Source: a virus
Virus genome (UHGV): UHGV-0000037
Strand: one strand, 5' to 3'
DNA: 35,580 nt
The position numbers were made by a program, and so were the translations under genes. This document shows positions 24,130 to 26,940 of this stretch, in pieces (positions within the stretch are counted from its first letter, which is position 1; each line of letters begins with the position of its first letter). The notes under the pieces were generated by a model that did no database searches, was not told the DNA's origin, and saw only the letters and a program-made list of their open reading frames with translations.

Positions 24130-24259
24130 GTGTGTCTCCTCGTTTGGTGGAGACAGCATCACAAATACAGGGCGCAAAGGATTTTAAAGCGCGTTAAGAG
24201 AGCCGGGGATACGGGATGTGCAGGATAAACGATGAATTATTCACAGAGGAGAATACGAT

Positions 24260-24736
24260 ATGACGCACACACTGAATCCGGTCATCACTGTCACTGTGTC
24301 CGGTCCTGTGGGCAGCGGTAAAAGTTACGTACTGGCGCGGATAGAAGAGATGGTGAAACAGGAACTCGGAAACAGCGTCATTGTCGATGCTGCTGACGTG
24401 GAGAATGAGCGCCGTATGAATGGCGAAGATCTGACGACCTGGCAGAAGCCACGGGGTGGCACAGTGATCAGGCTAGAGGAATACACGGGACAGGGCCTGT
24501 TGTCATACGGCGAGGAGCGTATCTGTCGGACGAATGAGCTGCTGGATGTTATATGCCCCACGGGCCGGCAACCCTGGATACTGCCCGATGCACTGCATGC
24601 CACCATTGCGGCACTGATGACAGTTTACGATCAGGAGCTGCTCATGAAGGAGTTACGTAAACTCACCGGTCAGCCAACAGAATGTTGTTCGTCTCCGAAG
24701 TACGGCAAACAGGAAAACGCCCCGGATAATCCTTAA
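24260..24736 (+). CDS. Small P-loop NTPase/kinase-like protein (orphan, plus strand)
   Basis: ATG at 24260 with AGAGGAG 8 nt upstream; Walker A GPVGSGKS and candidate Walker B SVIVDAAD; 158 aa. Confidence 0.6.
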   Translation: MTHTLNPVITVTVSGPVGSGKSYVLARIEEMVKQELGNSVIVDAADVENERRMNGEDLTTWQKPRGGTVIRLEEYTGQGLLSYGEERICRTNELLDVICPTGRQPWILPDALHATIAALMTVYDQELLMKELRKLTGQPTECCSSPKYGKQENAPDNP

Positions 24737-24755
24737 GATACCTCCTGAGCAGAAA

Positions 24756-24771
24756 CAGCCCTGAAGGGCTG
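24756..24771. terminator. Stem-loop between the convergent 158-aa and 196-aa genes (possible terminator)
   Basis: CAGCCC-TGAA-GGGCTG perfect 6-bp stem; followed by TTTCTGCT on the minus strand and by an A-run on the plus strand, so at best a modest intrinsic terminator. Confidence 0.3.
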
Positions 24772-24773
24772 CA

Positions 24774-25364
24774 CTAAAAAAAGAAGTGTATTATTGCCCA
24801 AACAGCTATAACGATGATTCCCAGCCCAAGAGCCGATTCTAACTTATCTTTGGCAGTCATTTTTACTGTTGTAGCGGGCGCAGGTAAGTCTTGCTGCTGT
24901 GGATTTTCTGTTAGTTGTTTACGAGAAGAAACATCGCCCCTGTTAGTTTGCTTCATGTTGATTACAGATGCGTTATGGGCATTATCAGCAGCAATTGACT
25001 GAAGTTTTACAAAAGTTTTTGAATCTGTTTTAGCCAGAAGTAACCTATTTCCCGTAAACATTGCCTTAAAAGTGATAGTTTTTTTCGTCTTGTCCGCCGC
25101 ACCAAGCAAACCTCCAATGACCAACCCTGCACCACCAAAGATTAATCCACCAAGCAAACCTGCGCCTGCCGCCTTACCTATACGGCTTTCCTCTTCACTA
25201 TCCGCAAGTTCAATCGATAAAAGCTCTTCTTTCAGATTTAATACAATATTTTCAGGAAAGCCTTGTTTTGGTTTTTTGGCAAACACGATGGTACCGAACC
25301 CCATGCTTGCCCACCCTTTAGGAAAACTTCCTGCGATAACCTGAATCCCTGCCATGTTCATCAC
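24774..25364 (-). CDS. Membrane protein with glycine-zipper segment and C-terminal TM helix (repressor operon, gene 3)
   Basis: GKAAGAGLLGGLIFGGAGLVIGGLLGAA glycine-zipper; C-terminal LGLGIIVIAVWAIIHFFF; likely start is ATG at 25355 (AAGGTGA upstream). Confidence 0.55.
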   Translation of the reverse strand: MMNMAGIQVIAGSFPKGWASMGFGTIVFAKKPKQGFPENIVLNLKEELLSIELADSEEESRIGKAAGAGLLGGLIFGGAGLVIGGLLGAADKTKKTITFKAMFTGNRLLLAKTDSKTFVKLQSIAADNAHNASVINMKQTNRGDVSSRKQLTENPQQQDLPAPATTVKMTAKDKLESALGLGIIVIAVWAIIHFFF

Positions 25365-25445
25365 CTTTTACATTAAAATTTCAGAACGCAGCATGATGCC
25401 GCCTTTGTCTTTTTTCTGATCCCATGGTAATTCAGCTGTTATTTT

Positions 25446-26432
25446 CTATTTAAGAATAAAACGGTACTTACTGTCAGGAGTGCTTTGCTGATCAAGTAGC
25501 AGTGAACGACATGGAGCAGTCAAAACCCGAGCATAACTACCATCAGGGCTTATGTTAATGTAACAAACCTTGCCCTTAACACTATAATTTTCGGGGACGG
25601 ATGCCTTTGCTGATACAGTAAATTTAAGGGTATGCCAGCCCGTTTTTTGCTTGTAGCTTGAAACCGAATGGAAATCATCTGAGTACTTATTTAACCCTGG
25701 AAACATGCTGCGCAGTGCGGGGATGGAATCTTCTATTATTTTATCGTTGGTTTTAATGTTAAAAACGCTGGTTTCAGTAGAAGCTACTGCTTTGGCATTT
25801 CCCCATTTACCAGCGAACACAATCATTCCCACGAAAAATATTGCTACAAGAACTAACACTCCCCCCAACACTACTACATGAGGCTTCCGGCTTCTGGTTG
25901 GTACAGTTGCGACTGATTTTGCACCGCTTTCCGATGGAGGTGATAGAGTTTTACTCTCATCACGAATATTCAGCAGATCATCAAAATAACCAAACACAGC
26001 CTGCAACTGCTCTTTGTCTAGGCCTTTAAGATGGGTTGTACCGAAATGCTTCAGACAGTATCTGTCACGGTCAAGACGATACCCAGGGTCAGTAAGCGCC
26101 ATTATTTTGCTGACCAGAAGATTACAGTCCTTCATATTCTGGATCTGTTGTGCATATCTCTGAAGGATCTCAACCGCACCATGATAATCAGCCGCAGTCA
26201 TTTCATTAACTGTTTTGGTATTAAGTTTCGTGTGGATCGTCATCCATAGCTCGCGCTTACTTTCCCCCAGATCAACCAATTCATCCATCAATCTGTGTAA
26301 ATCGCGTTTTTGCAGCAACGAAATTGGTTGCTGGGCCGAAGGAAGTATGTCAGCAGAATAGTTATGAATGGTAACATCACCGCTGACAACGTTACCCACA
26401 TCCCCGTTAACTGTTTGCTTCTCTTTACTCAT
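25446..26432 (-). CDS. Single-pass membrane protein, ~185-aa cytoplasmic N-domain and ~120-aa C-terminal domain (repressor operon, gene 2)
   Basis: ATG at 26432-26430 overlaps the repressor stop (ATGA); one hydrophobic helix HVVVLGGVLVLVAIFFVGMIVFAG; no recognisable catalytic motif. Confidence 0.6.
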   Translation of the reverse strand: MSKEKQTVNGDVGNVVSGDVTIHNYSADILPSAQQPISLLQKRDLHRLMDELVDLGESKRELWMTIHTKLNTKTVNEMTAADYHGAVEILQRYAQQIQNMKDCNLLVSKIMALTDPGYRLDRDRYCLKHFGTTHLKGLDKEQLQAVFGYFDDLLNIRDESKTLSPPSESGAKSVATVPTRSRKPHVVVLGGVLVLVAIFFVGMIVFAGKWGNAKAVASTETSVFNIKTNDKIIEDSIPALRSMFPGLNKYSDDFHSVSSYKQKTGWHTLKFTVSAKASVPENYSVKGKVCYINISPDGSYARVLTAPCRSLLLDQQSTPDSKYRFILK

Positions 26433-26890
26433 CTTCTCTTGGTATTTTTGTTCATTATTCCACCTGTTCCTATGGTTACGTTACCTTTGATAACATTCCC
26501 CAGAACATCTCCATGAATAACCTGTTCCGCCCGTTCTCTGGAGGAGCCAGTAGTCAAGGCCGACAAAACTGAACCTTTGACCTGTAATGGTGCCTGCCGG
26601 TAGTGCTGCAGTAACTCCATTTCATCACGTGATAAAGTTATACCTGATGACTCCCCGGTAAGAATGAACTGTACATTGGCCCCAATTCTTGCAAAGGCTG
26701 CAAGTAACTCACCTCCGGGAACAGCAACCCCTCGTTCATATTTCCCCCACATTTCTCTTGAAACGCCACAAAGGGCTGCTACTTCAGCCTGCTTGAGTGA
26801 TAACCGCGAACGCTCAGCTTTGAACCGCGACGCGCAAAGAGAATCAAAATTCACATAAACCTCATTGACAATGAGAACAATAGTTCTCAC
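26429..26890 (-). CDS. Prophage repressor, XRE-family HTH
   Basis: HTH ...LSLKQAEVAALCGVSREMWGKYERG...; divergent from the ner-like gene; probable true start is the GTG at 26854 (GAGG 5 nt upstream) rather than the track GTG at 26890. Confidence 0.75.
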   Translation of the reverse strand: MRTIVLIVNEVYVNFDSLCASRFKAERSRLSLKQAEVAALCGVSREMWGKYERGVAVPGGELLAAFARIGANVQFILTGESSGITLSRDEMELLQHYRQAPLQVKGSVLSALTTGSSRERAEQVIHGDVLGNVIKGNVTIGTGGIMNKNTKRR

Positions 26891-26907
26891 AATCTATCAC
26901 ATATAAA
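26865..26907. promoter_or_regulatory. Divergent early promoter/operator region: TTGACA (26865-26870) plus perfect 7-4-7 inverted repeat TGAGAAC-AATA-GTTCTCA (26872-26889)
   Basis: Read directly; the palindrome occupies the spacer of a sigma70-like promoter facing the ner-like gene, and AGGAG precedes the ner ATG. Confidence 0.4.
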
Positions 26908-26940
26908 ACAAACATCATTGCATCAACAAAGGAGACAACA

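Follow-up and report, generated by a model that had tools for sequence, protein, structure and literature searches.

Transposable phages of the BcepMu group combine Mu-like and other genes in an order that differs from that of Mu. In BcepMu itself (NC_005882), the genes fall into two clusters, one on each strand, that meet at the lysogeny control genes, with the lysis cassette next to these, and a tail-fibre inversion system is absent (PMC2771037). BcepMu and phiE255 (genus Bcepmuvirus), together with SalMu/PhotoMu-type enterobacterial prophages and PhiKM, are the closest known systems to the virus genome UHGV-0000037, whose 35,580 nucleotides were analysed here as a whole (referred to as the window). 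We conclude that the window is very probably the inner part of one BcepMu-type transposable myovirus prophage of E. coli, whose early and late genes point away from each other on either side of a central immunity block. This degree of confidence covers the full explanation, comprising an inverted immunity/early segment, a switch at the early promoter Pe, late promoters driven by Mor and a two-tier cascade. The divergent architecture is already known for this phage group; the one item that could be new is a short motif common to the tail of the repressor and the N-terminus of its neighbour.

Divergent gene order in the window and its relatives

The open reading frame (ORF) listing and the Pfam and PHROG family scans resolve two unbroken runs of genes. 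About 16 early genes occupy the plus strand from 26941 to 35580, from a gene for a 62-amino acid (aa) helix-turn-helix (HTH) protein to mor, and about 32 late genes occupy the minus strand from 24130 down to 624, from holin to tail fibre. The central block of 2.8 kb between them (24131-26940) has edges that coincide exactly with the holin ATG and the ATG of the Ner-like HTH gene, and its GC content is 42-46%, compared to 55-60% in the flanks. Within it lie an Xre repressor gene on the minus strand, facing the late genes, two more minus-strand genes and one plus-strand ORF. An earlier note on this DNA had proposed early and late operons diverging from positions 24130-26940 and a repressor pointing toward the late genes, and had set this apart from the co-linear order of Mu; all of this holds, and the Mu type is contradicted by the opposite strands of the operons, by a transposase of the rve/Tn552 type and by the presence of one Mor/C homologue. 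Relative to Mu, the whole immunity-plus-early segment, from repressor to mor, is inverted. The window starts one base into a plus-strand tail-fibre assembly gene and ends at the stop codon of mor, and thus both phage ends lie just outside it.

The gene order of BcepMu is the mirror image of that of the window. Leftward from the centre of BcepMu run gp16 (HTH), gp12, gp10, gp09 (transposase), gp08, gp02 (GemA) and gp01 (Mor/C), and rightward run gp17 (repressor), gp18 (membrane protein), gp19, gp20, gp21 (holin), gp22 (SLT), Rz/Rz1 and the head and tail genes. The window transposase is 68.7% identical to gp09 over 98% of its length, and the repressor is 39% identical to gp17 (E 5e-20). The BcepMu-type arrangement, which the earlier note had named, is supported by gene order, by the transposase and by the published description (PMC2771037). 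The features that define the group are also present: an rve rather than a MuA transposase, two divergent clusters, a holin-endolysin-Rz cassette, and a Mu-type head with P2-type tail genes (from Pfam, and from RefSeq names in the sister copy of E. coli CE10). The TG...CA termini and a target duplication are found in the CE10 copy, the window itself lying inside its own ends.

The likeness to the BcepMu group extends to most individual genes. One strand carries the Tn552-type rve transposase, an ExeA-like B protein, DUF3102, an IclR-type regulator, GemA and Mor, and the other carries the Xre repressor with a coupled membrane protein, holin, SLT, Rz and the head and tail genes; TGA...TCA ends with similar terminal repeats (in the CE10 copy) and a late-promoter dyad are also held in common. 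The differences are local. The window has other central accessory genes than PhiKM and KP12, which carry a Dam methylase and other repressors; its large terminase (TerL) is not the allele found in PhiKM and CE10; and a tail-fibre invertase region, missing from BcepMu, is present in the relatives from E. coli and Klebsiella. Fibre inversion is variation within the BcepMu group and not a core defining trait.

Comparison with Mu gives a more divided picture. Like Mu, the prophage is a transposable myovirus with Gam, GemA, Mor, a gp27-type small terminase (TerS), a portal and F and G homologues, its repressor is divergent from the early operon and mor is the last early gene; it also has four candidate late promoters that are without a -35 element and whose putative activator dyad would lie near -43. 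Unlike Mu, it has the immunity/early segment inverted with respect to the late genes, a transposase that is not of the MuA type, one Mor/C gene instead of two, P2-like tail genes and a first early gene that is not a demonstrated Ner homologue. The Pseudomonas phage B3/JBD18 group (Beetrevirus) has the same transposase family (57% identity), an inverted immunity/early region and Mor at the genome end, but these phages are siphovirus-type, no partner gene follows the repressor of JBD18, and no TTAA dyad was detected ahead of the JBD18 holin. For B3, Braid et al. reportedly described an inverted immunity/early region in 2004.

To place the layout in a wider set of phages, we used a profile scan for the transposase, with one genome per species, which yielded 80 loci, 68 of them with late genes within reach. 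The divergent layout is found in 65 of these 68 loci and the co-linear Mu order in three (L047, L049 and L054), and the distance from holin to early gene has a median of 2.8 kb (range 1.3-4.7 kb). The three co-linear loci are betaproteobacterial and carry a BcepMu-type transposase, with repressor, early genes, mor, lysis and terminase genes all rightward; thus, the inversion is not tied to the transposase type. This type of transposase is found in 637 of 5426 complete E. coli genomes, and the immunity block of the window in 97. Among phage records, megablast retrieved Escherichia phage PhiKM (deposited as Bcepmuvirus), a Klebsiella KP12 contig and Phi06_2974 B. The KP12 record (L002) is filed under Vequintavirinae, and the contig is a BcepMu-type prophage-like genome. 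The divergent architecture only assigns the prophage to the BcepMu group and does not change how the late genes are activated.

The immunity switch and a motif shared by repressor and partner

The features of the central block and of the first early gene are as follows.

26941-27129, plus strand: 62-aa HTH protein, first early gene (phrog_925, E 1.3e-32; homologue of BcepMu gp16)
26865-26893, plus strand: early promoter Pe, TTGACA, 17 nt, CACAAT (promoter scan)
26872-26889: perfect palindrome TGAGAAC-AATA-GTTCTCA between the Pe hexamers, proposed operator (palindrome search)
26429-26854, minus strand: Xre-type immunity repressor (Pfam HTH_31/HTH_3; homologue of BcepMu gp17)
26468-26527, minus strand: C-terminal matched motif of the repressor, EQVIHGDVLGNVIKGNVTIG
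25446-26432, minus strand: 328-aa partner protein, its start overlapping the repressor stop (ATGA)
26358-26417, minus strand: N-terminal matched motif of the partner (aa 6-25)
Partner domains: Flk_N-like helical, aa 31-160; transmembrane (TM) helix, about aa 189-207; periplasmic alpha/beta, aa 221-328
24774-25364, minus strand: 193-196-aa accessory membrane protein (phrog_12025; glycine-zipper segment, C-terminal TM helix)
24756-24771, minus strand: candidate terminator hairpin CAGCCC-N4-GGGCTG followed by UUUCUGCU (folding -19.2 kcal/mol, z -1.97)
24260-24736, plus strand: 3'-truncated P-loop ORF, 158 aa (phrog_3787 matched over 1-157 of 242 profile positions)

The -35 and -10 hexamers of Pe are kept across the aligned relatives, and the palindrome between them varies together with the HTH head of the repressor. 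The window shares GAGAAC/GTTC[TA]C with CE10 and Salmonella, and TGTGAT/ATCACA takes its place in Yersinia and Serratia. Because it covaries with the DNA-binding head, we take the palindrome to be the operator. In the window, the -10 hexamer (26888-26893) reads CACAAT, compared to CATAAT in the CE10, Salmonella, Yersinia and Serratia copies. A second candidate operator inside the Ner-like gene (27024-27049) has a different half-site spacing and is left as a candidate only. The repressor probably starts at GTG 26854 (141 aa), which has GAGG 5 nt upstream and agrees with homologues called at 139-141 aa; RefSeq annotates it to GTG 26890, a position that falls within the early promoter.

The first early gene has the same position across the loci by tblastn with BcepMu gp16, and in the Pfam scan its product had no match to the Ner family and only a sub-threshold match to HTH_31. 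To judge from these comparisons, it is a positional analogue of Ner/Cro and not a demonstrated Ner homologue. Hence, of an early operon proposed to run from ner to mor, the mor end stands, while 'ner' applies by position only.

The description of the whole 2.8 kb as a central control region is correct in its edges and too broad in its content, since only about 90 bp form the switch and the rest is mostly mosaic accessory DNA, including the plus-strand ORF. DNA homology to KP12 breaks off at 24196, where the promoter dyad lies, and is found again from 27181, and homology to PhiKM is lost over 24725-26890, where PhiKM has a 118-aa repressor, the Dam methylase and small ORFs. Based on these breaks, the block is a small switch joined to an exchangeable immunity-and-cargo slot. 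The 158-aa P-loop ORF is a remnant cut at a mosaic joint near 24724, since PhiKM has a full-length 242-aa version and its DNA homology ends at that point; Pfam gave this ORF a sub-threshold AAA match only. The gene for the 193-196-aa membrane protein is absent from PhiKM and KP12, and Pfam and PADLOC returned nothing for this 196-aa protein or for the 328-aa partner. The 118-aa HTH repressor ORF of PhiKM (L001; 29435-29791, plus strand) is unannotated and lies divergent from the Ner-like gene.

The repressor and its translationally coupled partner have in common a motif of about 20 aa, rich in G, N, Q, V and I, at the C-terminal tail of the former and the N-terminus of the latter. The partner in the window begins MSKEKQTVNGDVGNVVSGDVTIHNY, and the counterpart in the repressor tail is ...EQVIHGDVLGNVIKGNVTIG...; no other ORF in the window contains the motif. 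In BcepMu (L004), gp17 has VGQAVKVEGN and gp18 has VGQAIQAGEAN, a different pair that also matches. The pairs are lineage-specific across the 80 loci, for example FNGDISGQFAGNQIIN / FNGTAQGQFSSRDIIN, GHRVAGRDFNE / RNRVAGRDYIE and GNAQIGQATAGDIVN / GGAQIDQAAAGDINN, and a matched motif recurs at many of the loci L014-L093.

We scored repressor tails against partner N-termini in 30 de-replicated pairs, using non-cognate pairs and composition-shuffled partners as controls. The median score is 41.5 for cognate pairs, but is 21 for non-cognate pairs and 19 for shuffled partners (shuffle 99th percentile, 33). Cognate scores exceed 33 in 20 of the 30 pairs, and the cognate partner ranks first in nine and among the top five in 21. 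When all 899 adjacent same-strand ORF pairs from the same loci are scored, the top 13 scores belong almost entirely to the repressor/partner pair. Of 168 identical residues, 70 (42%) are encoded by the same codon, the nucleotide sequences are 61% identical, and the start-to-start spacing is mostly not a multiple of 3; these three observations argue that the motif is conserved at the level of protein. They also led us to reject a DNA direct repeat or gene conversion as its origin, as well as a recombination or frameshift route to an in-frame fusion.

The same tail occurs on different HTH heads, and the body of the partner varies, from Flk_N-like helical, TM and periplasmic domains in the window to a small Zn-ribbon protein elsewhere; within the 328-aa family the motif is the most conserved part. 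Repressors in which the tail ends ...LTQPKPGKxAG are without a partner. In AlphaFold2 models, the predicted local distance difference test score (pLDDT) is about 41 for partner residues 1-30, which include the motif, and above 90 for both partner domains, and is about 36 for the repressor tail (106-141). Low predicted confidence in spite of conservation is as expected for segments that fold only on binding.

Prophages of Yersinia, Serratia and Salmonella also have a gene of the partner family downstream of the repressor. When the 328-aa partner was compared directly with BcepMu gp18 by BLASTP, no significant alignment was obtained, and the correspondence of the two is based on position, architecture and tblastn across the loci. 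The cytoplasmic helical domain of the partner (aa 28-152) is similar to the N-terminal domain of Flk, a flagellar regulator of E. coli (25% identity over 133 aa, pairwise E 1e-5), and precomputed tables flag Pfam Flk_N weakly for it. The periplasmic domain (FNIKTNDKIIEDSIPALRSMFPGLNKY...) is found as a standalone lipoprotein at the same locus in two relatives, L027 (where it is the second ORF after the repressor) and L028, and so the partner in the window looks like a fusion of modules.

Two readings of the motif have to be weighed. The 328-aa protein could be a superinfection-exclusion or moron membrane protein expressed in the lysogen, as rexAB is with cI in lambda, in which case its resemblance to the repressor tail would be without regulatory meaning; we consider this a real possibility, although short of a probable one. 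It fits with co-transcription of the partner with the repressor, with a single-pass membrane protein that has a periplasmic domain, with the occurrence of that domain as a standalone lipoprotein in other prophages and with PHROG neighbours labelled as moron or membrane protein. It does not account for the motif being the most conserved part of the partner, for lineage-specific forms in at least 20 of the 30 de-replicated pairs, or for the specificity of the motif to this pair among the 899 adjacent ORF pairs; moreover, the motif is kept where the partner is a small Zn-ribbon and not a membrane protein, and is kept at the protein and not the DNA level. By analogy with described pairs, we tentatively suggest instead, as an idea we hold to be more doubtful than probable, that the two motifs associate homotypically, by beta-augmentation or in an amyloid-like manner, and that the partner thereby tethers, titrates or inactivates the repressor.

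The analogy for such homotypic association comes from two systems. In SinR/SinI, as in the window pair, the proteins of adjacent genes share a short segment; SinI binds SinR via residues conserved between both, and DNA binding by SinR is abolished (PMC3163267). The interface in SinR/SinI is helical, whereas the window pair is known from its sequence and from monomer predictions. In the BASS pair Bab/Agp, one protein carries at its C-terminus the motif that the other carries at its N-terminus (bioRxiv 10.1101/2024.11.07.622273). The BASS proteins are cell-death proteins of the Bell and NLR type, unlike the Xre HTH and Flk_N-like/TM or Zn-ribbon proteins found here, and the BASS survey does not mention HTH or phage proteins. 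Our literature search found no description of a motif matched between a repressor tail and its partner, and the matched motif is thus the item that could be new.

Candidate late promoters and the single Mor homologue

The window contains four similar intergenic sites on the late strand, the first of them at the left edge of the central block; they are listed here with the holin and mor genes.

23779-24130, minus strand: holin, first late gene (Pfam Holin_2-3, E 1.6e-41; ATG at 24130, GGAG ribosome-binding site)
24180-24197, minus strand: candidate late-promoter dyad 1 (Plys analogue), TTAACGCGCTTTAAAATC, upstream of holin
24155-24160, minus strand: -10-like GATGCT of the Plys analogue, without -35 (from the alignment of the four sites)
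16989-17006, minus strand: late-promoter dyad 2 (PI analogue), CTAAAGCAGATTAAAATC, upstream of the protease/scaffold-position gene 15818-16933
11072-11089, minus strand: late-promoter dyad 3, TTAATCCCCTTTAATATC, upstream of 10684-11025
5257-5274, minus strand: late-promoter dyad 4, TTAAACGCCTTTAATATC, upstream of the baseplate gene 4877-5224
35182-35580, plus strand: Mor/C-family activator, last early gene (Pfam Mor, E 1.1e-43)

We found the dyad by comparing the intergenic gaps of the late block with each other and with those of BcepMu, from which the pattern YTAA-N6-TTAAWATC was derived. This pattern has exactly four copies in the 35.6-kb window, even if one mismatch is allowed, compared to 0.19 expected; all four are on the late strand and intergenic. 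Each is followed, 23-24 nt after the second TTAA, by a -10-like hexamer (GATGCT, CAAACT, CATACT and AATACT), with no -35 hexamer, and the centre of the dyad would lie near -42.5 in the promoters so deduced. Between the tail tube-region ORF and dyad 3 lies a hairpin (-12.8 kcal/mol, z -2.6). In Mu, the sites for Mor and C have dyad symmetry, with a G/C-rich spacer of six nucleotides and the centre at -43.5; their promoters are without a -35 element, and Mu has four late promoters (PMC4390567; PMC2582627).

The dyad is conserved well beyond the window. BcepMu has CGTAAAGCCGATTAAAAGACC in the equivalent gap upstream of gp32, TTAGCCGGCTTTAATATC upstream of gp49 and a further copy upstream of holin, and the dyad is kept upstream of holin in Klebsiella, Yersinia, Salmonella, Serratia and Burkholderia relatives. 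Of 57 relatives, 30, from Enterobacterales to Burkholderiales, have it at most 200 nt upstream of holin; the background rate is 0.007 per 200 nt. L047, a co-linear relative, has the dyad directly after mor.

A phmmer search of Mor against all window ORFs found only one member of the Mor/C family, the product of 35182-35580. The activator that the earlier note had placed at the far end of the early operon or beyond the window is thus the last early gene and lies inside it. A single Mor/C gene implies a cascade that probably has two tiers and not the three of Mu (early, middle and late). Activation of the late genes by Mor through the dyads is supported, with binding and activation proposed by analogy with Mor and C of Mu. 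The need for a Mor-type activator at the late promoter, which had been deduced from the inversion, fits with the single Mor homologue and the four conserved dyads. Its derivation from the inversion does not stand, as acting in trans is normal for Mor/C proteins and is not a consequence of the inversion. In Mu, Mor and C also act as diffusible activators.

The prophage could then work as follows. In the lysogen, repressor bound to the operator would block Pe, as the position of the operator and its covariation with the repressor head suggest, and the immunity transcript would stop at the hairpin before holin. Upon derepression, the early operon of 8.7 kb would be transcribed; mor is last in its gene order, and Mor would appear correspondingly late. 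A Mor dimer would then bind the TTAA-N6-TTAA dyads at about -42.5 in the four promoters without -35, which would serve the lysis-head, protease/capsid, tail and baseplate units, and so turn on all late genes. The early operon runs outward to one phage end, and the late block, faced by the repressor operon, to the other.

Several points weigh against this scheme. Of the 57 relatives, 27, for the most part Pseudomonas B3-like phages, lack the exact dyad. There is some circularity in the count of four, because the pattern was derived from the same four window sites, and independent support therefore comes from the lack of further copies in the window and from the retention of the dyad in distant relatives. 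The -42.5 position depends on transcription start sites that are themselves deduced. At the switch, the promoter scan gave no convincing minus-strand promoter for the repressor (the best, TTGTTG/TTATAT, matches at 3/6 in each hexamer), and the CACAAT hexamer of Pe is a possible promoter-down change, so that the window copy may be less inducible. The 24756-24771 hairpin was not called by the terminator scan, its U tract being weak; it may nevertheless end the immunity operon and insulate the lysis genes.

We consider it improbable that the late genes are independent of Mor, that is, that they are transcribed from sigma-70 promoters or by read-through from the repressor operon, with the dyads as unrelated conserved elements such as sites bound by a different protein. 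Mor-independent transcription would suit a repressor operon that runs in the same direction as the lysis genes, a candidate terminator between them that is weak, and a connection between Mor and the dyads that is drawn by analogy. However, read-through would express holin and endolysin in lysogens, and a convergent ORF as well as the hairpin separates the repressor operon from the lysis operon. The four sites are without a -35 hexamer, the geometry and position of the dyads match the Mor/C sites of Mu, and the dyad follows mor directly in the co-linear relative. We therefore retain Mor-driven late promoters as the better explanation.

One insertion and the remaining genes

The sister copy in E. 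coli CE10 (97% identical) is inserted in, and splits, one lom gene, which belongs to a lambdoid prophage. The termini of this copy, TGATGCGCCGCGCGATAAATG... and ...GTCTAATCA (shorter form ...TCTAATCA), align with those of BcepMu, its end lies about 150 bp beyond mor, and 6 bp of lom (ATGTGC) are duplicated at the target. The central block is 99.9% identical in CE10 and IAI39. A target duplication of 5 bp, which is the length in Mu, had been expected outside the window: the duplication and the ends are there in the CE10 copy, and the length is 6 bp. The absence of end-like sequence from the central region, on which the earlier note had also relied, was confirmed by a search for the terminal-repeat core, which had no match in the central block and one chance-level match in the window, at 13133.

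That the early and late blocks belong to two adjoining prophages, with ends hidden in a low-GC mosaic block that does look superficially like a junction, is effectively refuted and has next to no probability, given that in CE10 one lom gene holds the whole copy as a single insertion, with matched BcepMu-like ends and a target duplication, that the packaged BcepMu genome has the same gene order, that 65 of 68 independent loci share the layout, that the terminal-repeat motif is missing from the centre and that neither block alone is a complete phage.

The other genes of this single element, in order from the lysis cassette through the late block and then along the early operon, are given below; assignments are from the Pfam and PHROG scans.

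23036-23776, minus strand: SLT endolysin
Minus strand, after the SLT endolysin: Rz-like spanin
Minus strand, between the Rz-like spanin and the small terminase: two small conserved genes
21217-21771, minus strand: Mu gp27-type small terminase, TerS (Phage_Mu_Gp27)
19904-21220, minus strand: TerL
18411-19904, minus strand: Mu-type portal (Portal_Mu)
Minus strand: Mu F and G-like morphogenesis protein (Phage_Mu_F)
15818-16933, minus strand: protease/scaffold-position gene; also on the minus strand, capsid gene
Minus strand: P2-type sheath, tube, tape measure and baseplate genes and tail protein I (Tail_P2_I)
2256-3209, minus strand: fibre, with three further Collar-domain ORFs
Plus strand, after the 62-aa HTH gene: IclR-type winged-helix protein, then DUF3102
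28419-30188, plus strand: transposase of BcepMu/Tn552 type with rve catalytic core (Pfam rve)
Plus strand, between transposase and Mor: AAA_22 B-like ATPase, Gam, small ORFs, DUF2786/DUF7168 and GemA

The length of the holin agrees with the CE10 and PhiKM annotations. Over 19968-21477, the TerL region is without DNA homology to PhiKM or CE10, while both flanks are 94-97% identical; the window TerL is a 438-aa protein of the Terminase_6N/6C type, as in the Serratia relative L008, compared to 507-531 aa in PhiKM and KP12. Judged by these homology limits, the large terminase is a mosaic replacement. After the fibre gene come three tandem minus-strand ORFs (1655-2245, 1111-1644 and 624-1100), each starting with a Collar domain and sharing repeats of about 94 nt, and the plus-strand fibre-assembly gene (1-617) faces them. 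This set looks like alternative fibre tips or an invertible segment; an invertase adjoins the fibre genes in the CE10 and KP12 relatives.

The late-promoter dyad is a useful but expected refinement of what is known for these phages. Found from Escherichia to Burkholderia, TTAA-N6-TTAA-WATC provides a testable regulon for a single Mor/C-type activator and an aid to annotating such prophages. If the matched motif does mediate an interaction, it would be a new way in which a prophage repressor is connected to a partner, be it a membrane protein or another. It could then give these prophages a membrane-linked route to the control of immunity or induction, which Mu and lambda are without, and would extend to lysogeny control the logic of a motif shared by adjacent genes, as in SinR/SinI and amyloid signalling.

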